UHGV virus genome: UHGV-0105323
DNA length: 21,941 nt
Strand: one strand, 5' to 3'
Source of the DNA: a virus
Under the pieces are notes generated by a model. It searched no databases and had not been told where the DNA came from. It saw only the letters and a program-made list of their open reading frames with translations. How positions within the stretch are numbered: the stretch's first letter is position 1; each line of letters begins with the position of its first letter. Position numbers and translations under genes: made by a program. This document shows, in pieces, positions 8,933-21,283 of the stretch.

Positions 8933-9298
8933 ATGGCTGAGCTTCGTACACTCCAGAGCAGAATCAAAACACTGAATACCCGACGGGTGAATATTCTGAA
9001 GGGTGAACAGCGTCGTGTCAGTGGCAGTGCACGTGTTTCCCTCAAGCGTCATATCTGGCTCAGGGACGCCGGGCAGTGCTGTATCTGTGGTCGTGTGGTT
9101 GACCTCTGTGACAGTGAACTTGATCACCGAATTGCACTTCAGTTCGGTGGTGGTAATGAGGAGACGAATCTCTGGACGCTCTGTACCGAATGCCATCGAC
9201 AAAAGTCTGCTCGTGAAGCGGCGGGTGGTATGCCGGACCCGACGCTGCCGGAGGTGTCCGGAGGTAGTGGCAGAGCGGACGACATCATCGGACTGTAA
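8933..9298 (+). CDS. HNH homing-type endonuclease (terminase-associated)
   Basis: 121-aa ORF with HNH motif (CCICG...DHRIALQFGG...NLWTLCTECHRQK); sits just upstream of the cos-like region and terminase small subunit, as in HK97-like cos phages. Confidence 0.8.
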   Translation: MAELRTLQSRIKTLNTRRVNILKGEQRRVSGSARVSLKRHIWLRDAGQCCICGRVVDLCDSELDHRIALQFGGGNEETNLWTLCTECHRQKSAREAAGGMPDPTLPEVSGGSGRADDIIGL

Positions 9299-9588: not shown

Positions 9589-10152
9589 GTGCTGACAACG
9601 CAAAAACGAAAATTTGCGCTGGCGCTCATGTCCGGGAAAAACAAAACAGCGTCAGCCATTGCCGCCGGTTATTCGGCGAAGACCGCCAGGGTTAAAGGCT
9701 CGCAGCTGGCAAAAGATCCGGAGGTGCTTGCGTTTATAGCCCGTAAACAATGCGAGACGGTGGAGGTGGATGAGGTTCCTGTTTACCGGCAGAAAAAATC
9801 AGAGCAGGAGGATAAACCCCGTCGCCGTGAGGCGGCTGCAATACCACAGCCGGACGAAAACAATCCGGAGATGCCACCGTCCGCGGTGATGTCTCCTGGT
9901 ATTGAATATATGGAGGATGGTCTTCCCGATCCGGTGAAAGCCATGGGGCGGATCCTGGTGGAAAACCTCTGCATTGATCCGAAACTGGCACTGGATGCGG
10001 CCTGGCGTCTGGCGCAGTTCACGCACCATAAAAAAGGGGATACCGGGAAAAAATCGGCAAAAGGTGATGCCGCGAAAAAAGCGGCTAACCGTTTTGCGGT
10101 GCCACCGCCACCCCGACTGGTGGTGAATAACGATAATGAGGGCAACGGATGA
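9589..10152 (+). CDS. Terminase small subunit
   Basis: GTG start with GGAGGAGG RBS; N-terminus (KRKFALALMSGKNKTASAIAAGYSAKTARVKGSQLAKDPEV) resembles phage terminase small-subunit HTH regions; HNH-cos-TerS synteny. Confidence 0.7.
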   Translation: MLTTQKRKFALALMSGKNKTASAIAAGYSAKTARVKGSQLAKDPEVLAFIARKQCETVEVDEVPVYRQKKSEQEDKPRRREAAAIPQPDENNPEMPPSAVMSPGIEYMEDGLPDPVKAMGRILVENLCIDPKLALDAAWRLAQFTHHKKGDTGKKSAKGDAAKKAANRFAVPPPPRLVVNNDNEGNG

Positions 10153-10406
10153 TACCTGTATGGAGCACAGCCTGCCCGGACTGGGCAGAGCGCCTGAAAA
10201 AGGGGCTGTCGATTATTCCGGATCCGATTTATCCGGACGAGGCCGCACATGCCCTGGCGATTTTTAAACAACTGCGGATTGTGGATGCACCTGGTAGCCC
10301 TACGTTCGGGGAGTCCTGTGCACCGTGGGTGGCGCAACTGGGCCTCATCCGTACTGCAGGAAATATCAAAAGTTCTTATGAATGCCGCGATTGTCAACGG
10401 AATTAA
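10149..10406 (+). pseudogene. Terminase large subunit, N-terminal fragment (truncated at a deletion junction)
   Basis: ORF overlaps the TerS stop (ATGA) and opens MIPVWSTACPDWAERLKKGLSIIPDPIYPDEA..., which resembles TerL N-termini of HK97/P27-like phages, but recognisable sequence runs only about 60 codons before the frame changes into tape-measure sequence. Junction estimated near 10330-10375. Confidence 0.6.
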
Positions 10407-10842
10407 GACGGCGGCAAACGGTATGTCCGGTGCGGGAGGATTTATTGGCAGCATTGGTGACTGGCTGGGCGGTGCGGTGGCCAATGCAAAAGGCGGCGTG
10501 TATACCTCGGCAAACCTGAGCGCGTACAGCAACAGTATTGTGGATACGCCCACGTACTTTGCCTTTGCAAAAGGGGCCGGGCTGATGGGGGAAGCAGGAC
10601 CTGAAGCCATAATGCCCCTGACCCGGGCGGCGGATGGCTCGCTGGGTGTACGCGCGGTGGGCAGTATGAACGGCAGTGCCGGTCTGGTGTATTCCCCGGT
10701 CTACCATATCGCCATTCAGAATGACGGGGCCAACGGTCAGATAGGGCCGGAGGCGGCAGGCAGCCTTGTTCAGCTGATTGACCAGCGGGTGCAGGCGGTG
10801 ATGCTGTCCATGCGACGAGACGGAGGAATGCTGAGTGGCTGA
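10249..10842 (+). pseudogene. H: Tail tape-measure protein (lambda H-like), C-terminal fragment
   Basis: Gly-rich C-terminal segment (AAIVNGIKTAANGMSGAGGFIGSIGDWLGGAVANAKGGVYTSANLSAYS...) of the kind found at lambda-H-like tape-measure C-termini, ending 8 nt past the start of M exactly as H precedes M in lambda. The first roughly 30-40 codons of this frame are out-of-frame TerL DNA. Confidence 0.65.
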
Positions 10843-11176
10843 GATAAAAACGCTGCATCTGGTCCCGCGTGAAGGGATGCAGGTGAGTGAGAAACCGTCG
10901 GTGGTGAGGGTCCGGTTTGGTGACGGTTATGAACAGCGCCGACCGACGGGACTGAATGCCCGACTGAAGACATTTCAGGCGGTGTTCCGGGTGACGGATG
11001 AGGCGACCCGGCGCTGGCTGGATGAATTTTTATCGTGGCATGGTGGTTACCGTGCCTTTTTGTGGAAACCCCCGAAACATAACCGGACGGTCAGGGTGGT
11101 GTGCCGGGAGTGGAGTATTACGGATAACGCCAGGTACAGCGATTTCAGTTGTATGATGGAACAGGTAATAAGATAA
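10835..11176 (+). CDS. M: Minor tail protein M
   Basis: 113-aa ORF (GTG start) with VRVRFGDGYEQRRPTGLNARLKT...FLWKPP motifs matching lambda gpM; H-M-L synteny. Confidence 0.85.
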   Translation: MAEIKTLHLVPREGMQVSEKPSVVRVRFGDGYEQRRPTGLNARLKTFQAVFRVTDEATRRWLDEFLSWHGGYRAFLWKPPKHNRTVRVVCREWSITDNARYSDFSCMMEQVIR

Positions 11177-11382
11177 GTTTTTGAGAAAAAACCTAAAAGC
11201 ATCGTTTATTAATTTGCTTGCTTGTTATTTTTGTTTTGTCTTGACATAAAGTGCTATCAAAGTTGTTTTTTTACATTTTGAAACAAAATAAAAATTGAAC
11301 CCGTAATTTAATTTACAATATTTTGAGTTTTGTTCATGACATCTCTATGCATGAATAGTTCAGTTTAAATAAGGATTAAATC

Positions 11383-12546
11383 ATGAAAAAAATGACAGTG
11401 GCACTTTCAGCTGTGGCAGCAGCTGTAATTTTTGCAGCGGGGGCGCAGGCTGCAGAAGTATACAATAAAGATGGCAATAAACTTGATGTGTATGGGCGTG
11501 CAACTGCACTCCATTATTTCTCCAGTGATAAGGGGGATGATGGAGATAAGACATACGCACGTCTGGGCTTTAAAGGTGAAACTCAGATTAATGACCAGTT
11601 GACTGGTTTTGGTCAGTGGGAATATCAGTTCTCTGGTAATAAAGCTGAATCAGAGGGTGCTGCGGGTAATAAAACCCGTCTTGCATTTGCAGGTCTGAAG
11701 TTTGGTGAGTTTGGCACCATTGATTATGGTCGTAACTATGGTATTGCGTACGATGTTGGTTCTTATACTGACGTATTACCAGAGTTTGGCGGTGATGGCT
11801 GGACCCAGACCGATAACTTCATGACAGCCCGTACTTCCGGGGTATTAACCTATCGTAATACAGATTTCTTTGGGCTTGTCGATGGCCTGAATTTTGCGGC
11901 ACAGTACCAGGGTAAAAATGATCGGGGTGATCTCCGGAAAGCTAATGGTGATGGTCACGGTTTCTCAGCCAGTTATGAATATGAAGGTTTTGGTATCGTT
12001 GCCGCATATATTAATGCGGACCGAACCAATAATCAGGAAAAAGGTCTGAATGGTACTCTGACGATTGAACAAACTGATCCTTTAACCGGTAAAGTGACTG
12101 AAAAGCAGATCGTTGTTGATTCCGGTAGTGTTGCAAAAGGTAAACACGCTGAGATGTGGGGAGTCGGACTAAAATACGATGCTGACAACCTTTACCTGGC
12201 TACAACATATTCCGAAACTCAGAATCTGACGACCTTTGGTGATAAAGGAGTTGCAGATAAAGCGCAAAACTTTGAAGCGGTACTGCAGTATCAGTTTGAT
12301 TTTGGTCTGCGCCCGTCCCTGGCCTACCTTCAGTCCCGCGGACAGGATGTTATGGTTGGTGGTGTGAACCATGGCGATCAGGATCTGGTTAAATATATTG
12401 ATGTCGGAGCGACTTATTACTTTAACAAGAATATGTCCACCTATGTTGATTATAAAATTAACCTGATTGATGAAAGTGAATTTACCCGGAAAGCCGGTGT
12501 TGCGACAGATAATATCGTTGCTGTGGGTATGACTTATCAGTTCTGA
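11383..12546 (+). CDS. General diffusion porin (OmpC/OmpF/PhoE family; NmpC/Lc-like prophage porin)
   Basis: 387-aa ORF with signal peptide ([38 protein letters not shown]), typical porin strands ([35 protein letters not shown]) and C-terminal ...VGMTYQF. Preceded by about 200 bp of very AT-rich DNA and followed by a strong terminator; inserted between M and L. Confidence 0.85.
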
Positions 12547-12718
12547 TTATTGCTGATAAGTTAATAAATACGGGCCGTCTGCCCTTACAGGCGGCCTGTA
12601 TCAATGAAAACACAGTTTTCATTGGTCACTGCGATCAGCAATTGCCATCTGGTATGTGCTGATTTAACTTTCTGTTATTACCTTTATTGGTTTTATTTTA
12701 AATTGGACTTTTATTGTT

Positions 12719-12744
12719 CGGGGCGCGTCTGCGCCCCTTTTTTA
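12719..12744 (+). terminator. Rho-independent terminator after the porin gene
   Basis: CGGGGCGCG-TCT-GCGCCCC followed by TTTTTT. Confidence 0.65.
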
Positions 12745-12755
12745 TGGGCGGATAT

Positions 12756-13454
12756 ATGCAGGATATTCACGAAGAAAGTCTGAACGAGTCGGTTAAATCA
12801 GAGCAGTCACCGCGGGTGGTGCTCTGGGAAATCGACCTGACGGTGCAGGGCGGTGAGCGGTATTTTTTCTGCAATGAGCTGAATGAAAAAGGGGAGCCGG
12901 TCACCTGGCAGGGGCGGCAATATCAGGCATACCCGATTGACGGTAGCGGTTTTGAGATGAGCGGGAAGGGCAGCAGTGCCAGACCGTTGCTGACGGTGTC
13001 CAATCTGTTCGGTCTGGTCACCGGGATGGCGGAGGATTTGCAGAGCCTGGTGGGGGCCACGGTGGTCCGCCGCCGGGTGTATGCCCGTTTTCTGGATGCG
13101 GTGAATTTCGTTGCGGGCAATCCGGAGGCGGACCCGGAGCAGGAGCTGAGTGACCGCTGGGTGGTGGAGCAGATGTCGGAGCTGACAGCCATGACGGCCT
13201 CGTTTGTGCTGGCCACACCGACCGAGACGGACGGGGCGCTGTTTCCCGGTCGTATCATGCTGGCGAACACCTGTATGTGGACCTACCGCTCTGATGAGTG
13301 TGGTTACACGGGCAGGGCTGTGGCGGATGAGTTCGATAAACCCACCACGGATATCCGTAAGGACAGATGCAGCAAGTGCATGCGCGGGTGTGAACTGCGC
13401 AGGAATGTCGGCAATTTTGGCGGTTTCCTTTCCATTAATAAACTTTCGCAGTAA
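12756..13454 (+). CDS. L: Minor tail protein L
   Basis: Start at the internal ATG (MQDIHEESLNE...) corresponding to the lambda gpL start; strong similarity throughout (VVLWEIDLT..GGERYFFCNE.NEKGEPVTWQGRQYQ.YPI.GSGFE...GNFGGFLSINKLSQ), including the conserved Cys cluster. Confidence 0.85.
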   Translation: MQDIHEESLNESVKSEQSPRVVLWEIDLTVQGGERYFFCNELNEKGEPVTWQGRQYQAYPIDGSGFEMSGKGSSARPLLTVSNLFGLVTGMAEDLQSLVGATVVRRRVYARFLDAVNFVAGNPEADPEQELSDRWVVEQMSELTAMTASFVLATPTETDGALFPGRIMLANTCMWTYRSDECGYTGRAVADEFDKPTTDIRKDRCSKCMRGCELRRNVGNFGGFLSINKLSQ

Positions 13455-13463
13455 TGGATTATG

Positions 13464-13486
13464 CCCACCGTCAGGTGGGTTTTTTA
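13464..13486 (+). terminator. Rho-independent terminator after L
   Basis: CCCACC-GTCA-GGTGGG followed by TTTTTTA. Confidence 0.55.
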
Positions 13487-13510
13487 TAAGGAGTAATCAT
13501 GATTTACCCA

Positions 13511-14047
13511 TCAAACAACCCACCAGTTTGCCTGATTGGATGCCAGCCTTGCAGTTTTTATGGAATTAATTATGCCATGCTCAAGAGCCTTGTTAGCATC
13601 CAAAATGGTCGAGTCTGCTATCAGGGATGCCCACCTAATATGGGTTCCGATGTCGATATTGAACGTCTCAACGAAGCGATCAAGATCGTTATCGAGGCAT
13701 TTCCCGTACTCTCTCAATCTGGCATGGTCGGCGGCTGGGGAGGCAAAGCACCATAATAGAGGATGTAACAGGAATCTTGATAATGGGTTTGCGAAACGTT
13801 CTGAGCCAGCCAGGAAAACGATATTAGCTATGGATTCAACATTGCTTATGTTGTGAGTTCTAACGGTAACAGGGAGTGACTTAAGAAAGTTATACGCAGT
13901 AAAGCCAGCGGCAGTTTCCCCTCCCTGACTTGATATATGGATATTTAATTCAGTTGCGCCTTGAGATAATGCGGTGAGACAGTGGTTCTGAAGTTGCCCA
14001 ACAGTGGCAGTGTTAACGGGGCATAAGAAATGAATTGTGTGCAGCAT
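13511..14047 (-). CDS. ClpP-fold serine peptidase-like protein (S14/ClpP-crotonase superfamily), accessory
   Basis: 178-aa reverse-strand ORF whose start overlaps the stop of the upstream Mnt-like gene (TAATG). Hand alignment to ClpP: ISSQGGETAAGF vs INSPGGVITAGM, a Ser at the nucleophile position (NVESIAN vs GQAASMG) and a His at the catalytic His position (RFLLHPL vs RVMIHQP). Confidence 0.5.
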   Translation of the reverse strand: MLHTIHFLCPVNTATVGQLQNHCLTALSQGATELNIHISSQGGETAAGFTAYNFLKSLPVTVRTHNISNVESIANIVFLAGSERFANPLSRFLLHPLLWCFASPAADHARLREYGKCLDNDLDRFVETFNIDIGTHIRWASLIADSTILDANKALEHGIINSIKTARLASNQANWWVV

Positions 14048-14295
14048 TATTTTTCATCCTTAGCATACATGGTCTTTAGCGTCTCAAGTAGCGCCTCTTT
14101 GAATTTATCAGCTTCTTGGTTAGCGAATCCTTCAAGTGAGCGAGAGCCATCAAGATTATCAACATGTTTTTGAAGGATAAGCACGATCTCTGAGTTCATT
14201 GATCTGCCGTTTTTATCCGCTTCTTGCTGAATGCGTTTCTTTAAATAGTCTGGAATCCTAATCCCCAATGGACTGATATCTCTTGCACCTTTCAT
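14047..14295 (-). CDS. mnt: Mnt-like ribbon-helix-helix repressor
   Basis: Start at the internal ATG behind AGGAGGAG, giving 82 aa, the same length as P22 Mnt. MKGARDISPLGIRIPDYLKKRIQQEADKNGRSMNSEIV... has the Arc/Mnt RHH N-terminus (NGRSMNSE). Divergent from the arc-ant pair across an operator-rich intergenic region. Confidence 0.65.
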   Translation of the reverse strand: MKGARDISPLGIRIPDYLKKRIQQEADKNGRSMNSEIVLILQKHVDNLDGSRSLEGFANQEADKFKEALLETLKTMYAKDEK

Positions 14296-14317
14296 TTCTC
14301 CTCCTGCACGCTGTGCG

Positions 14318-14392
14318 TAGCTACACAGTGTAGGCAAAAAATTTTTGACTTTAAATAAACACGGTGTAGTATTTAGTTATCACGGTGTAGCA
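14318..14392. promoter_or_regulatory. Divergent promoter/operator region of the immI-like module
   Basis: Perfect palindrome CTACACAGTGTAG (14321-14333), direct repeats CACGGTGTAG at 14360 and 14381 spaced 21 bp, and a -35-like TTGACT (14345-14350) 16 bp upstream of a -10-like TAGTAT (14367-14372); four GTGTAG half-sites in all. Confidence 0.5.
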
Positions 14393-14404
14393 AGTGAGGT
14401 GGAA

Positions 14405-14545
14405 ATGAAAGTTAGAGACATCGCTCCATTAGGGATTCGTATCCCGCCAGAGATTAAAGAAAAATTGAAGGAAAAGGCTAAGGAGGAGGGCAGGTCTTTA
14501 AATTCAGAAATAGTGCAGCGTCTTATTCGCAGCCTAAAAAGTTGA
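14405..14545 (+). CDS. arc: Arc-like ribbon-helix-helix repressor
   Basis: 46-aa product [46 protein letters not shown] with GAGGTGG RBS; same RHH signature as P22 Arc (NGRS.NSEI); immediately upstream of ant. Confidence 0.6.
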
Positions 14546-14575
14546 AGCCCCAACTGCTGGAACAGTCGGGGCTTC
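14544..14575 (-). terminator. Hairpin in the arc-ant intergenic region; reverse-strand terminator-like (possible sar-type antisense RNA terminator)
   Basis: Perfect 8-bp inverted repeat GAAGCCCC...GGGGCTTC; read on the reverse strand it is followed by AACTTTTTAGG. Confidence 0.35.
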
Positions 14576-14606
14576 GGTATCAACAAATCAGATAGGAATT
14601 ATTGAT

Positions 14607-15536
14607 ATGGCAAGTTTAGCAAAGTCAACATTAAATTGCACTAACAGCATCACCATTTCAGACGTCAAGATTCATATGGATTCAGAGGGGCGTTACTCGC
14701 TTAATGACCTGCACAAGGCATCAGGTAAAGAGCGTCGTCATGAGCCTGCTGCGTGGCTGCGACTCGAACAAACCAATGAGTTAGTTCAAGAAATTCTAAA
14801 TACACAGATGTGTGTATTTAAAAATGGCGATAACTTTAATTCTTCAGAATCGCAGATTAAGAAGCCAATGGACTCTAAGAAGGGTCGCTACGGAGGCACC
14901 TACGTGTGCAAGGAGCTTGTTTACTCCTACGCCATGTGGATTAGCGCAGCCTTTGCGCTGAAGGTTATCCGTGCATATGACGCAATGGTTACTACCACAC
15001 AAGAGAGGAAGGCTATTGGCGGTAAAACTTCAGTAGCTGAACGCACACCTCTACGCGATGCAGTAAACATGCTGGTAGGAAAGAAAGGACTTCGCTATGA
15101 CGATGCATACAATATGGTTCATCAGCGTTTTGGTATTGACAGCATTGATGAACTTTCAATTGAACAAATCCCGCTGGCCGTAGAGTACATCCACAGGGTA
15201 GTGCTTGAAGGTGAGTTCATTGGCAAACAAGAGAAGAAAACCAACGAGCTTTCCGCAAAAGAAGCAAACAGCCTTGTATGGCTATGGGATTATGCCAACC
15301 GCTCACAGGCATTATTCCGCGAACTGTATCCGGCGCTAAAGCAAATTCAATCGAACTATTCTGACAGGTGCTACAACTACGGCCATGAGTTCTCGTATGT
15401 TATTGGAATGGCGAGAGACGTTTTAATCAATCACACACGAGATGTTGATATTAATGAGCCAGATGGACCAACGAATCTTTCCGCATGGGTAAGGCTTAAG
15501 AGCAAAGAGTTGCCGCCTTCACTGCATCACTACTAA
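14607..15536 (+). CDS. ant: Antirepressor with N-terminal KilA-N domain (Ant-like)
   Basis: 309-aa ORF; N-terminal region ([25 protein letters not shown]...[19 protein letters not shown]...[29 protein letters not shown]) fits the KilA-N/Ant fold; size and position after arc match P22 Ant. Confidence 0.65.
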
Positions 15537-17146: not shown

Positions 17147-17674
17147 TTATGGGATGATACCACAGCCCATTCTTGCACCGCCGCCGCCGAGTGGATCTGG
17201 ATGGTCATGATAGTTGTCACCGCCAATGTGGATCATAAGAGACCGTCCGCTTATTTCTGTTAATTCTTTCAGTTTTGGTGCGAGAACCGGATAGTTTGCT
17301 TTTCCGTCATGAGTCACGTACAGAGCCGGGAGATCGCCCAGGTGACCATCAGGAGACCAGGGACCAAGATGTTTTCCAGTCTGTTTCGGGTCAAAGTGAC
17401 CGCCAGCTGCTAATGCCGCAACAGATACTCCATCTTTCAGAGCCGGCGCGCAACTTCCCTTTTCGTGCACATGAAATCCATGAATGCCCTGAGGTAAAGA
17501 GTGCAGATCTGGTGTGAACAGGAGACCATAGCTGGTCTCCTGGATAGTTATTGTTCCGGCGCTCACCTCTTTACCATCGGCATTAACAAGGTTCATGGGG
17601 ACTTTTATTGTGGCGGCATATCCACATGATGTTGCCAGCACCATTGCAATAGCAGCAAGACTTTTACGGTTCAT
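17147..17674 (-). CDS. sodC: Periplasmic Cu,Zn superoxide dismutase
   Basis: 175-aa ORF with signal peptide ([20 protein letters not shown]) and Cu/Zn-SOD metal-ligand motifs ([28 protein letters not shown]); reverse-strand insert between tail genes I and J. Confidence 0.9.
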
Positions 17675-17809: not shown

Positions 17810-20800
17810 ATGGGTAAAGGTGGCGGCAAGGCGCACACACCTCGTGAGGCGAAGGATAATCTCAAATCCACGCAGATGATGAGCGTGATTGATGCGATTG
17901 GTGAGGGACCGATAGAAGGTCCGGTGAAGGGACTGCAGAGTATCCTGGTGAACAAAACCCCGCTGACGGACACGGACGGTAATCCCGTGATACACGGTGT
18001 GACCGCCGTCTGGCGTGCCGGGGAGCAGGAGCAGACACCACCGGAAGGCTTTGAGTCCTCCGGAGCTGAAACCGCACTGGGCGTGGAAGTGACGAAGGCA
18101 AAGCCGGTGACGCGCACCATTACGTCCGCGAACATTGACCGCCTGCGGGTGACCTTCGGGGTGCAGTCACTGGTGGAGACCACCTCAAAGGGTGACCGTA
18201 ATCCGACGTCTGTCCGCCTGCTGATTCAGCTTGAGCGTGGTGGTAAATGGATGACGGAAAAGGATGTCACCATTAACGGCAAGACCACCTCGCAGTTCCT
18301 GGCGTCGGTGATTCTGGATAATCTGCCGCCCCGGCCCTTTAACATCCGGATGGTCAGGGAGACGGCGGACAGCACCACGGACCAGCTGCAGAATAAGACG
18401 CTCTGGTCGTCATACACCGAAATCATCGATGTGAAACAGTGCTACCCGAACACGGCCATTGTGGGGCTGCAGGTGGATGCGGAGCAGTTCGGCGGCCAGC
18501 AGATGACGGTGAACTACCATATCCGCGGTCGCATCATCCAGGTGCCGTCAAACTATGACCCGGAAAAACGCACGTACAGTGGTATCTGGGACGGCAGTCT
18601 GAAACCGGCATACAGCAACAACCCGGCCTGGTGCCTGTGGGACATGCTGACTCACCCGCGCTACGGGATGGGAAAACGTCTGGGGGCGGCGGATGTGGAC
18701 AAGTGGGCGCTGTATGCCATCGGGCAGTACTGCGACCAGACGGTCCCGGATGGTTTCGGGGGCACAGAGCCGCGGATGACCTTTAATGCGTACCTGGCAC
18801 AACAGCGTAAGGCGTGGGACGTTCTCAGTGATTTCTGCTCGGCGATGCGCTGTATGCCGGTATGGAACGGCCAGACGCTGACGTTCGTTCAGGACCGCCC
18901 GTCGGATGTGGTGTGGCCGTACACCAACAGCGATGTGGTGGTGGATGATAACGGCGTGGGGTTCCGCTACAGCTTCAGTGCCCTGAAGGACCGGCACACG
19001 GCGGTGGAGGTGAATTACACCGACCCGCAGAACGGCTGGCAGACCTCCACGGAACTGGTGGAAGACCCGGAAGCCATACTGCGCTACGGACGCAACCTGC
19101 TGAAGATGGACGCGTTCGGCTGTACCAGCCGCGGTCAGGCCCACCGTGCCGGACTGTGGGTGATAAAGACCGAACTGCTGGAAACGCAGACGGTGGATTT
19201 CACACTCGGGTCACAGGGGCTGCGGCACACACCCGGTGACATCATTGAAATCTGTGATAACGACTATGCCGGAACCCTGACCGGCGGACGTGTCCTGTCC
19301 ATTGATGCTGCCACCCGCACCCTGACGCTGGACCGTGAAGTGACACTTCCGGGGACAGGTGCATCGACGGTGAACCTGATTAACGGCAGCGGTAAGCCGG
19401 TGAGTGTGGACATCACCGCACACCCCGCGCCGGACCGGATACAGGTCAGTACCCTGCCTGATGGTGTGGAGACATACGGGGTGTGGGGACTCTCCCTGCC
19501 GTCACTGCGCCGTCGCCTGTTCCGCTGTGTGGCCATCCGGGAAAACACGGACGGCACCTTTGCCATCACGGCGGTGCAGCACGTACCGGAAAAAGAAGCC
19601 ATTGTGGATAACGGAGCCCGCTTTGAGCCGCAGTCAGGCACCCTGAACAGCGTTATCCCTCCGGCAGTGCAGCACCTGACGGTGGAGGTGAGCGCAGCTG
19701 ACGGCCAGTATCTGGCGCTGGCGAAATGGGACACGCCGAGGGTGGTGAAGGGCGTGCGCTTCAGTCTGCGCCTGACCAGTGGAAGCGGTGAGAACAGCCG
19801 CCTGCTGACCACCGCCATCACTGCCGATACGGAGCACCGTTTCAGTGGCCTGCCTCTCGGGGAATACACCCTGACGGTCAGGGCGATTAACAGCTATGGC
19901 CAGCAGGGCGAACCCGCCACCACCACGTTCCGGATTAACGCACCGGCAGCGCCTGCCGGTGTTGAACTGACGCCGGGGTATTTTCAGATAACGGCAGTCC
20001 CGAAACTGACCATTTATGACCCGACGGTGCAGTTTGAGTTCTGGTTTTCGGAGGCAAAAATTGCAGACGCCGCACAGGTGGAAACCTCTGCCCGTTATCT
20101 GGGGACCGGCAGTCAGTGGAGTGTCTCCGGTCCGCACATTAAGCCCGGAAAGGATTTCTGGTTTTATGTGCGCAGCGTCAACCTGGTGGGTAAATCTGCT
20201 TTTGTGGAAGCCAGTGGACGGGCGAGCAATGATGCTGCGGGCTATCTGGAACTTTTCCGGGAAAAGATAGGAAAACTGCATCTGGCAGAGGCGCTGTGGG
20301 CAGAGATTGACAACAGTCAGCTGAAGGACGAGATGGCGGAAATGCAGACCACCATCACAGAAACCCGCAATGAAATCACACAGACGGTCAGTAAAACGCT
20401 GGAGGACCAGAGCGCCACCATACAGCAGATACAGCGCGTGCAGAAGGACACAAATGATGACCTTGCTGCACTTTACATGCTGAAGGTACAGAAAACAAAA
20501 AATGGCATACCCTATGTTGCCGGTATTGGAGCGGGGATTGAGGATACTGATGGCCAGCCCCTGAGCAACATACTGCTGCTGGCTGACCGTATTGCGATGA
20601 TTAACCCGGAGGACGGCAACACCACGCCGTTATTTGTGGCGCAGGGGAATCAGTTGTTCATGAACGATGTGTTCCTGAAGCGGCTGTTTGCGGTGAGTAT
20701 CACCTCGTCCGGCAATCCCCCGACGTTTTCCCTGACGCCGGAGGGCAGGCTGACCGCAAGAAATGCTGATATCAGCGGTAACGTGAATGCGAATTCCGGG

Positions 20801-21283
20801 ACGCTCAACAACGTCACGATTAACGAGAACTGTCGGGTTCTGGGAAAACTGTCCGCGAACCAGATTGAAGGCGATCTCGTTAAAACAGTGGGCAAAGCTT
20901 TCCCCCGGGACTCCCGTGCACCGGAGCGGTGGCCATCAGGGACCATTACCGTCAGGGTTTATGACGATCAGCCGTTTGACAGGCAGATTGTTATTCCGGC
21001 GGTGGCATTCAGTGGCGCTAAGCATAAGAGAGAGCATACTGATATTTACTCCTCATGCCGTCTGATAGTGCGGAAAAACGGTGCTGAAATTTATAACCGT
21101 ACCGCGCTGGATAATACGCTGATTTACAGTGGCGTTATTGATATGCCTGCCGGTCACGGTCACATGACGCTGGAGTTTTCGGTATCAGCATGGCTGGTGA
21201 ATAACTGGTATCCCACAGCAAGTATCAGCGATTTGCTGGTTGTGGTGATGAAGAAAGCCACCGCAGGCATCAGTATCAGCTGA
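17810..21283 (+). CDS. J: Host specificity protein J (central tail fiber)
   Basis: 1157-aa ORF with AGGAG RBS; N-terminus [39 protein letters not shown] and many internal blocks collinear with lambda gpJ. Confidence 0.9.

Follow-up and report, generated by a model that had tools for sequence, protein, structure and literature searches.

The virus genome UHGV-0105323, a stretch of 21,941 nucleotides (nt) referred to below as the window, consists of lambda-like prophage DNA of the Stx-phage type. Between its tail genes M and L lies a gene for a porin of the OmpC family, followed by a structured 3' untranslated region (3'UTR) that resembles ipeX. We regard this unit as a second lineage of the Lc/NmpC+IpeX lysogenic-conversion cassette, at a new location, because the sequence comparisons point to a shared 3'UTR, whereas the protein is not an ortholog of Lc/NmpC and the location and orientation differ from those of that group. 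The cassette probably has two parts, a porin and an ipeX-type RNA that would repress the host porins, so that their combined effect would be a porin swap. The initial annotation had described an AT-rich region, a porin gene and a strong terminator and had missed the ipeX-like 3'UTR, which is probably half of the function. It had also likened the gene to the lysogenic-conversion porins of the Lc/NmpC type, and this likeness holds, the structured 3'UTR being shared and the protein, 68-69% identical, belonging to a lineage of its own.

The 3'UTR and its predicted pairing with ompC and ompF

The 3'UTR comprises the 197 nt that follow the porin stop codon (12547..12743; features are on the plus strand unless noted otherwise). 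Its minimum free energy (MFE) fold has an energy of -76 kcal/mol (z=-8.0 vs shuffled sequence). The consensus structure of ten distinct tail-operon copies consists of three hairpins and a terminator, with 41 pairs. Hairpin 1 has a 14-bp stem (12568..12601) in which three pairs have changed on both sides, hairpin 2 a 10-bp stem (12602..12624) with four such pairs, and hairpin 3 (12633..12664), the apical part of which varies by insertion and deletion, has one. In the alignment 99.3% of the cells are paired and eight pairs show compensatory changes; when the 3' partners are slid by 1-3 columns as a control, pairing drops to 37-43%. A strong terminator had been noted after the porin. It is present (12720..12743; GGGGCGC-GTCT-GCGCCCC followed by six T, with seven G-C pairs and a 4-nt loop) and is invariant in all alleles, but it is not adjacent to the stop codon: it lies 174 nt beyond it and closes the structured 3'UTR.

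The kinship with ipeX was examined with a covariance model, R1, built from the ten tail-operon 3'UTRs only and containing no nmpC or lc sequence; its E-values are roughly calibrated. R1 matches every nmpC/lc-type porin 3'UTR at full length from the stop codon (34-41 bits, rough E 1e-7 to 1e-9). Other matches in the 740 kb searched reach at most 24.7 bits, and there is no match at the chromosomal OmpD-like porin genes, which, unlike the tail-operon cassette, are without an ipeX-like 3'UTR. In the cryptic prophage DLP12 (qsr') of E. coli K-12, the match covers 165 nt (868-1032 of locus L011, minus strand). Since ipeX is listed as 167 nt in DLP12 (PMC12197685), the matched stretch is the ipeX locus. 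Published reports have IpeX originating from the transcript of the phage porin and reducing OmpC and OmpF (PMC8065619, PMC12197685, PMC3333887). Common to the two groups are the three hairpins, an AU-rich linker of the form ..CTGTTAT..TTACC(C)TTTATT.. and a GGGGCG...CGCCCC terminator. In sequence, however, the stems differ completely, and the tail-operon group has about 35 additional nt ahead of the terminator. As judged from the model, the tail-operon 3'UTR is homologous to the nmpC/lc 3'UTR, with its structure conserved. At permissive thresholds no Rfam family matches either the 3'UTR or the K-12 ipeX region.

The linker between hairpin 3 and the terminator contains a segment, TTTAACTTTCTGTTATTACCTTTATTGG (12663..12690), that is unpaired in the centroid structure and that we treat as a candidate seed. 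No other fully invariant run in the linker is as long as the core of this segment, TTATTACCTT, whose flanks are near-invariant. The segment resembles the seed of MicF (TTAACTTT.T.TTATTACC..(T/C)ATT; p<0.001 vs shuffles), and the variant found in the window resembles the 5' seed of MicC as well (GTTAT-TACCTTTATTG vs GTTATATGCCTTTATTG; p~0.004). A MicF/MicC-like seed in these RNAs, or its predicted pairing with ompC, was not found in the accessible literature.

Duplex energies were calculated for the seed only, against K-12 start regions (-45..+15); calculations with full-length RNAs were discarded, as they gave long, loop-ridden and meaningless duplexes. Three kinds of control were used: 500 shuffles (mononucleotide shuffles for the short seeds), 47 annotated K-12 start regions and 4,994 genomic windows (together with the start regions, 5,041 control sequences), the genomic sampling being of 50 kb plus selected genes. 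With ompC, the window seed is predicted to form a duplex of -24.9 kcal/mol (z=-5.4), which is matched by 0/500 shuffles, 0/47 start regions and 0/4,994 windows. With ompF the value is -15.4 kcal/mol (z=-1.7), and with ompA (-8.9 kcal/mol) and nmpC (-7.3 kcal/mol) it is indistinguishable from background. With the start region of the cassette's own porin it is -6.2 kcal/mol (z=+1.2). A second type of seed, represented by locus L001, gives -21.5 kcal/mol with ompC and -18.9 kcal/mol (z=-3.8) with ompF; in both cases no control sequence is as good. K-12 ipeX shows the same predicted pairing with the ompC start region (-26.4 kcal/mol, z=-4.9), and gives -18.8 kcal/mol (z=-2.2) with ompF. The positive controls, MicF with ompF and MicC with ompC, give -22.2 kcal/mol (z=-4.7) and -22.8 kcal/mol (z=-4.4), respectively.

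The predicted duplex of the window seed with ompC has two parts: 12664-12678 pairs with -19..-5 (15 pairs, Shine-Dalgarno sequence included), and 12681-12688 with -30..-23 (8 pairs). The L001-type seed is predicted to pair in another register, with -14..+12. The target itself hardly varies: of 5,426 E. coli genomes, 5,362 have an ompC leader of at least 99% identity. Alignment and calculations together show a conserved seed with specific complementarity to the start region of ompC. The likeness to MicF and MicC extends to overlapping predicted target sites and to duplex energies equal to those of the MicF-ompF and MicC-ompC controls. The difference is that the seed resides in the 3'UTR of a porin mRNA and not in a free-standing gene. 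The prophage small RNA svsR provides an analogy only.

R1 also gives weak matches (13-22 bits) on micF upstream of chromosomal ompC, at 3595-3729 of L126, 3570-3719 of L166, 2017-2174 of L010 and at about 15 further loci, in Lelliottia, Enterobacter, Serratia and E. coli. In these matches the seed and the seed-to-terminator spacing are aligned. The resemblance could be due either to common ancestry or to mimicry.

The porin, its alleles and the upstream region

The porin gene (11383..12546) encodes 387 amino acids (aa) in an open reading frame (ORF) that has no frameshift or internal stop. The product matches Pfam Porin_1 (PF00267) from end to end (1-337/337, E=1.3e-140, 469 bits against a cutoff of 23.7) and passes the cutoff of the NCBIfam subfamily 'porin OmpC' (496.3 vs 484 bits), which is also the name given to the gene by the RefSeq/NCBI pipeline. 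In PHROGs it belongs to family phrog_410, whose function is listed as unknown. The mature OmpC chains in the Protein Data Bank (PDB) begin to align at residue 24 (AQA|AEVYNK); therefore a signal peptide of 23 aa is assigned (11383-11451), from this alignment and not from a dedicated predictor. The complete porin of the OmpC/OmpF/NmpC family, with signal peptide, that had been annotated from the nucleotide sequence is borne out in both respects. The protein ends in ..TYQF, the aromatic end being an outer-membrane insertion signal. The AlphaFold2 (AF2) model is a 16-stranded barrel of moderate confidence (pLDDT 71), for which Foldseek finds OmpC structures as the best PDB matches (TM 0.79/0.89; solved OmpC-type structures are 56-59% identical in the Foldseek alignment). 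The motif LPEFGGD of the constriction loop L3 is kept, as are the arginines aligned with R37, R74 and R124 of OmpC; the position of OmpC K16 is occupied by R. We propose that the product is a functional trimeric porin of the OmpC family. With the chromosomal porins OmpC (E. coli, Klebsiella OmpK36) and OmpD (Salmonella, Citrobacter) it shares its fold and the motif of the constriction loop, as well as the signals at both ends, the signal peptide and the C-terminal one. The phage porin differs in having a short L4 loop and a long loop in the L5 region, in its prophage context and in the absence of a divergent micF.

The exact protein is present in 478 blocks of the public collection, which, together with the recurrence of the arrangement in 92-111 of 5,426 complete E. 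coli genomes (see below), argues that the ORF is not due to chance. Identity within the tail-operon group is 79-100% and to the Lc/NmpC group 68-69%, so the two groups are discrete. An alignment to NmpC, Lc and OmpD had been suggested earlier; in the comparisons made, the Lc/NmpC group and, at 63-67% identity, the OmpD-like chromosomal porins of Citrobacter, Enterobacter and Salmonella are nearest to the window porin outside its own group. A search for a chromosomal donor that covered 185,579 species, with one genome for each, gave no porin of more than 69% identity. A Citrobacter farmeri protein on a 4.3-kb contig is 84% identical.

Variation among the alleles is concentrated in one surface loop (residues ~215-250; 12025..12132), identified from the allele alignment, the AF2 model and the ratio of nonsynonymous to synonymous substitutions (dN/dS). 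The loop varies in length by 0-30 aa, giving porins of 364-387 aa. The loop of the window allele exceeds that of OmpC or NmpC by about 30 aa, and AF2 strands 223-231 and 238-246 form a predicted protruding beta-hairpin. Its dN/dS is 0.2-0.7; outside the loop the value is 0.04-0.13, at dS of 0.6-1.1 between alleles. By these ratios the gene is under strong purifying selection, the one loop excepted, and the hypervariability of the loop fits pressure by phages, colicins or antibody. A frameshifted pseudogene had been considered earlier, but neither the window ORF nor any of 45 related loci shows a frameshift, and all copies are intact (45/45). They include an intact 373-aa allele that is retained, with its 3'UTR, in a remnant (L016; E. 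coli CP116169.1, 4213374-4219550). That remnant is a heavily decayed copy of the prophage: IS66 elements and pieces of the tape-measure gene are present, L is frameshifted and a Rop gene lies alongside. Recombination has shaped the window allele. Its 5' flank and the gene as far as about residue 300, three quarters of its length, are of the L001 type; the last quarter and the 3'UTR are of the type found at locus L012.

Upstream of the gene are 206 bp of very AT-rich DNA (11177..11382; GC ~0.25), in agreement with the length of about 200 bp given before. This region recurs in 22 E. coli genomes at 100% identity; in some 60 others the identity is about 77%, and conserved blocks remain. The TTGACA at 11241..11246, to which attention had been drawn, is indeed there, but its role as a -35 hexamer is unsupported. 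Among the alleles it is partly conserved (TTGACA/TTGTCA/TTAACA/TTATTA), there is no acceptable -10 hexamer 16-18 nt from it, and a sigma-70 consensus scan of 10800-13000 gives no promoter in 11177-11382. It could be an upstream OmpR half-site instead.

The sequence TTTACATTTTGAAACAAAAT (11271..11290) resembles an OmpR box. By blastn its first 16 nt (11271-11286) exactly match the K-12 ompC upstream region, covering 16 of the 20 nt of the ompC C1 OmpR site (C1 sequence from PMC2586830). The conserved form of the box at 11271-11286 is TTTACATTTTG[A/T][A/T]AC, and the core TTTACAT..T...C is kept in 16 of 16 distinct 5' variants. Four bases 3' of the box starts a block, TTGAA[C/T] (11295-11300), that is kept in all alleles, as is AATATTTT at 11317-11324. 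These blocks supply a candidate weak promoter (11295..11324) with TTGAAC as -35, a spacer of 18 nt and TATTTT (11319-11324) as -10, below the threshold of the consensus scan. Relative to it the box would lie at about -60 to -41, the place taken in ompC and ompF by the OmpR site nearest to the promoter. The conserved box together with the weak hexamers thus appears to be a better promoter candidate than TTGACA. Also conserved across the 5' variants are two blocks in the presumed leader and TAAGGA, the block that contains the Shine-Dalgarno sequence AAGGA of the porin gene (11371..11375). Comparing the whole cassette with the K-12 nmpC and ompC loci by blastn yields the coding similarity, the 16-nt C1 box and one 29-nt match only. 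The last lies around TTGACA (11233-11261) and corresponds to a site just upstream of micF in K-12 (L010; 86%; E=6e-5, the search being small); like the box, it may be left over from a control region of the ompC-micF type. A partial resemblance near the ribosome-binding site, suggested by MAFFT, was rejected, as the nhmmer profile did not support it.

Models for the function of the cassette

The features described above suggest the following scheme. In the lysogen, the porin would be transcribed, probably from its own weak, activator-dependent promoter of the OmpR type. The 197-nt 3'UTR of the same transcript would act as an ipeX-type RNA, its single-stranded segment mimicking the MicF/MicC seeds and pairing with host ompC mRNA, and less strongly with ompF mRNA, at the ribosome-binding site, while the cassette's own start region escapes. 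The net result would be a decrease of host OmpC and OmpF, with the phage porin in their place. Such a swap would alter which phages, colicins, antibodies and solutes use the surface, and the cell would stay permeable. The terminator would close the lysogenic transcript, and in lytic growth late transcription antiterminated by Q would read through it into L, which would then be translated from a ribosome-binding site supplied by the insert. Q-modified RNA polymerase reads through terminators, and the cassette therefore need not harm tail gene expression. Within this scheme we infer the promoter and its regulation by OmpR, the processing of the 3'UTR, the repression of ompC and ompF, and the benefit to the host.

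Several observations weigh against the scheme. The promoter scan is negative, the link to OmpR rests on one 16-nt box, and with a profile of 16 variants nhmmer detects no homology between the 5' region and the regions upstream of nmpC-type or chromosomal OmpD-type genes. Part of the seed is paired in the MFE fold, though not in the centroid; accessibility, Hfq and competing structure do not enter the duplex energies; and the pairing of the window seed with ompF is marginal. The Rfam MicF model (RF00033) has no match in or near the 3'UTR (E<=1 over 10800-14700, E<=10 over 12540-12760), and since Rfam has no ipeX family either, the assignment of the RNA rests on R1. The original ipeX study reportedly found no complementarity to ompC and an effect on ompC that is independent of Hfq. 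The ompC complementarity was either overlooked earlier or is not what drives repression. Finally, the window prophage is defective (see below), so that any benefit here goes to the host only.

A simpler view is that the cassette provides an extra porin and nothing more, an added pore with altered permeability or antigenicity, whose 3'UTR hairpins stabilise the mRNA and terminate transcription. The complementarity would then have arisen incidentally, through AU-richness or through ancestry shared with porin leaders. The porin is selected on its own, stable 3' hairpins are common stabilisers of mRNA, and both the missing match to the MicF model and the doubts about simple base pairing in the ipeX literature are as this view would have them. 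It does not lead one to expect, however, an invariant seed core flanked by near-invariant sequence between variable stems, nor two seed variants that are predicted to target the ompC start in different registers, each beating all controls and neither pairing with its own start. The homologous nmpC/lc 3'UTR has, moreover, been reported to repress both OmpC and OmpF. We consider the extra-porin view unlikely, although it is the most serious competitor.

Less probable still is a function in the lytic cycle, in which receptor porins would be removed or replaced during late transcription and progeny virions spared from loss on debris. The orientation of the cassette, which follows the tail genes in all loci while nmpC/lc is antisense to late transcription, would suit such a function, as would a J protein whose C-terminal domain is about 60% similar to that of an OmpC-binding J (PDB 9wca/9wcb). 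Late read-through, on the other hand, has no need of the conserved upstream elements and the strong terminator, and a porin probably turns over too slowly to make a difference in a single lytic cycle. The cassette is also intact in prophages that can make no particles, namely the window, without head genes and most tail genes, and the remnant L016. Retention in such prophages argues that the benefit goes to the bacterium. That the cassette is a neutral passenger, or a captured host porin in decay and without present function, might be suggested by the defective state of the window prophage, but is effectively refuted by the data on selection and conservation: every one of the 45 copies is intact at dN/dS of 0.04-0.13 and dS up to 1.1, the regulatory blocks and the RNA structure are conserved, and the donor search gave no chromosomal porin above the 69% limit.

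The porin swap remains the reading that we favor. A more specific and more tentative form of it, to which we give somewhat less than an even chance, is that the phage porin 3'UTRs in general, those of the tail operon as well as ipeX of PA-2 and DLP12, are phage-made mimics of the MicC/MicF seeds that silence ompC and ompF by base pairing, with their own leaders escaping. IpeX has since 2006 reportedly been described as not explained by complementarity. If the mimicry is real it would settle the mechanism of IpeX, and the cassette offers a directly testable base-pairing model for the ipeX class, in which a phage would have copied the seeds of host small RNAs. The window-type seed would then favor ompC, and the L001 type would target both ompC and ompF, in the other register. 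The cassette would represent a mobile module for porin swapping, which has passed between two fixed sites in lambdoid genomes and whose loop and seed have diversified. Beta-lactams and other small hydrophilic drugs enter mainly through OmpC and OmpF, which also serve many phages and colicins as receptors and are major surface antigens. A module that swaps them for a loop-variable phage pore would change drug entry, receptors and antigens at once. Carrier genomes are annotated with a second 'ompC', which can mislead calls of porin loss in resistance prediction.

Insertion between M and L and the surrounding prophage

That the porin sits as an inserted unit between M and L, as stated in the initial annotation, is supported by the Pfam calls for the two tail genes (M, a minor tail protein, 10835..11176, Phage_min_tail, E=5e-28; L, 12756..13454, Phage_tail_L, E=6e-92) and by clean junctions with phages that are without the porin. 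In phages YYZ-2008 (L178) and vB_EcoS-569R3 (L179), and in about 160 other records, the M stop and the L start overlap by one base. The overlap reads ..CTGATGCAGGA.. in both phages (longer stretch, ..GGTGGTGAACTGATGCAGGA..). The window departs from these phages after ..CAGGT at 11166 and rejoins them at the L ATG at 12756; therefore the insert is 11167..12755 (1,589 bp), and the last three codons and the stop of M (11167-11176) come from it. The coupling of M and L translation is broken by the insert, which provides L with a new ribosome-binding region, ATGGGCGGATAT (12744..12755). Its GGGCGGA is kept as GGG[C/T]GGA in all insert-bearing loci. The GC content is about 0.58-0.65 in M and L, 0.245 over 11200-11399 and 0.39-0.47 across the porin gene and its tail.

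A moron, in the sense of Hendrix and Juhala, is an extra transcription unit between conserved phage genes. The insert has the expected features of absence in relatives with adjoining M and L, deviant base composition and a clear terminator of its own. For a promoter of its own there is the conserved weak candidate with the OmpR-like box, the consensus scan being negative. Lambda lom and bor, and the sodC and ant/arc modules of the window, likewise show different base composition, an own terminator and clean insertion. The tail-operon cassette differs from them in coupling a general porin to a regulatory RNA and in breaking the M-L coupling while supplying a replacement ribosome-binding site. 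The placement in the tail operon, which had been called less usual, is indeed so for this type of porin: the nmpC-type loci lie between Q and the holin gene, antisense to the late genes, in 52 of 52 cases, whereas the tail-operon cassette is in the sense orientation. The longer, hypervariable surface loop and a 5' region without detectable homology further set the tail-operon cassette apart from Lc (phage PA-2) and NmpC, with which it has in common that an OmpC-family porin is carried by a phage as an autonomous cassette.

The M-porin-L arrangement, with at least 80% of the query covered, is present in 92 of 5,426 complete E. coli genomes (~2%), and the two non-coding regions that flank the gene within the cassette are present in 93 and 111 of the 5,426, always on the chromosome. 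Carriers include many Shiga-toxin-producing and clinical isolates. The arrangement was found in no record of a collection of 50,697 phage genomes; it is present in at least 30 prophage-derived contigs of IMG/VR, and the order M-porin-L on the same strand is seen in all 30 loci that have flanking sequence. Neither a porin between M and L nor the tail-operon arrangement was found described in the accessible literature.

The gene order upstream of the tail genes is DNA methylase, TerB-like protein, NanS-p-type esterase, lysis genes, HNH endonuclease and small terminase subunit. The sialate esterase (DUF1737+SASA+DUF6645; 3085-5046) precedes the lysis genes, as in Stx phages; there are no stx genes in the window. 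The HNH endonuclease gene (8933-9298) adjoins the terminase, of which the small subunit gene (9589-10149) is intact. In the region 9589-10842, the large terminase gene (from 10149) breaks off after 64 codons and is joined there to the final ~170 codons of the tape-measure gene H; similarity to intact prophages resumes at 10330. The deletion has thus removed all head genes and most tail-shaft genes, and the prophage is defective. M, the porin gene, L, K, I and J follow the residual H. A contig from a human-gut metagenome (L005), 99.92% identical to the window, has this deletion as well. An intact prophage in E. coli CP170294.1 matches the window from 10330 on at 99.9% identity; CP170294.1 and E. 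coli CP091394.1 both carry the identical cassette.

The J gene occupies 17810-21283, with the C-terminal part (residues 862-1157) at 20294-21280. A C-terminal query of 458 aa scores 540 bits with 'A8 gpJ 713', the structure of which has been solved in complex with OmpC of E. coli EDL933 (PDB 9wca/9wcb), vs 479 bits with lambda J. A receptor assignment from J was rejected, since the similarity, ~60% to A8 gpJ 713 (for the receptor-binding end the identity is put at about 60%) and ~45% to the J proteins of lambda and 434, is too distant. The match raises the possibility that OmpC is the receptor of this prophage family, which would fit a cassette that lowers OmpC.

A second insert, between L and K (13455-15536; GC 0.40-0.45), is a module like immI of P22. 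It contains genes for a ClpP-like protease (13511-14047, minus strand), an Arc-family protein (14047-14337, minus strand), a second Arc-like protein (14345-14545) and a KilA-N/P22_AR_C antirepressor (14607-15536), and the sar antisense RNA (14540-14605, minus strand; Rfam RF00262, 67.6 bits). A third, between I and J, carries a gene for a Cu/Zn superoxide dismutase (SodC; 17147-17674, minus strand), a known type of prophage cargo. The tail operon of the window thus holds three separate morons within 7 kb.

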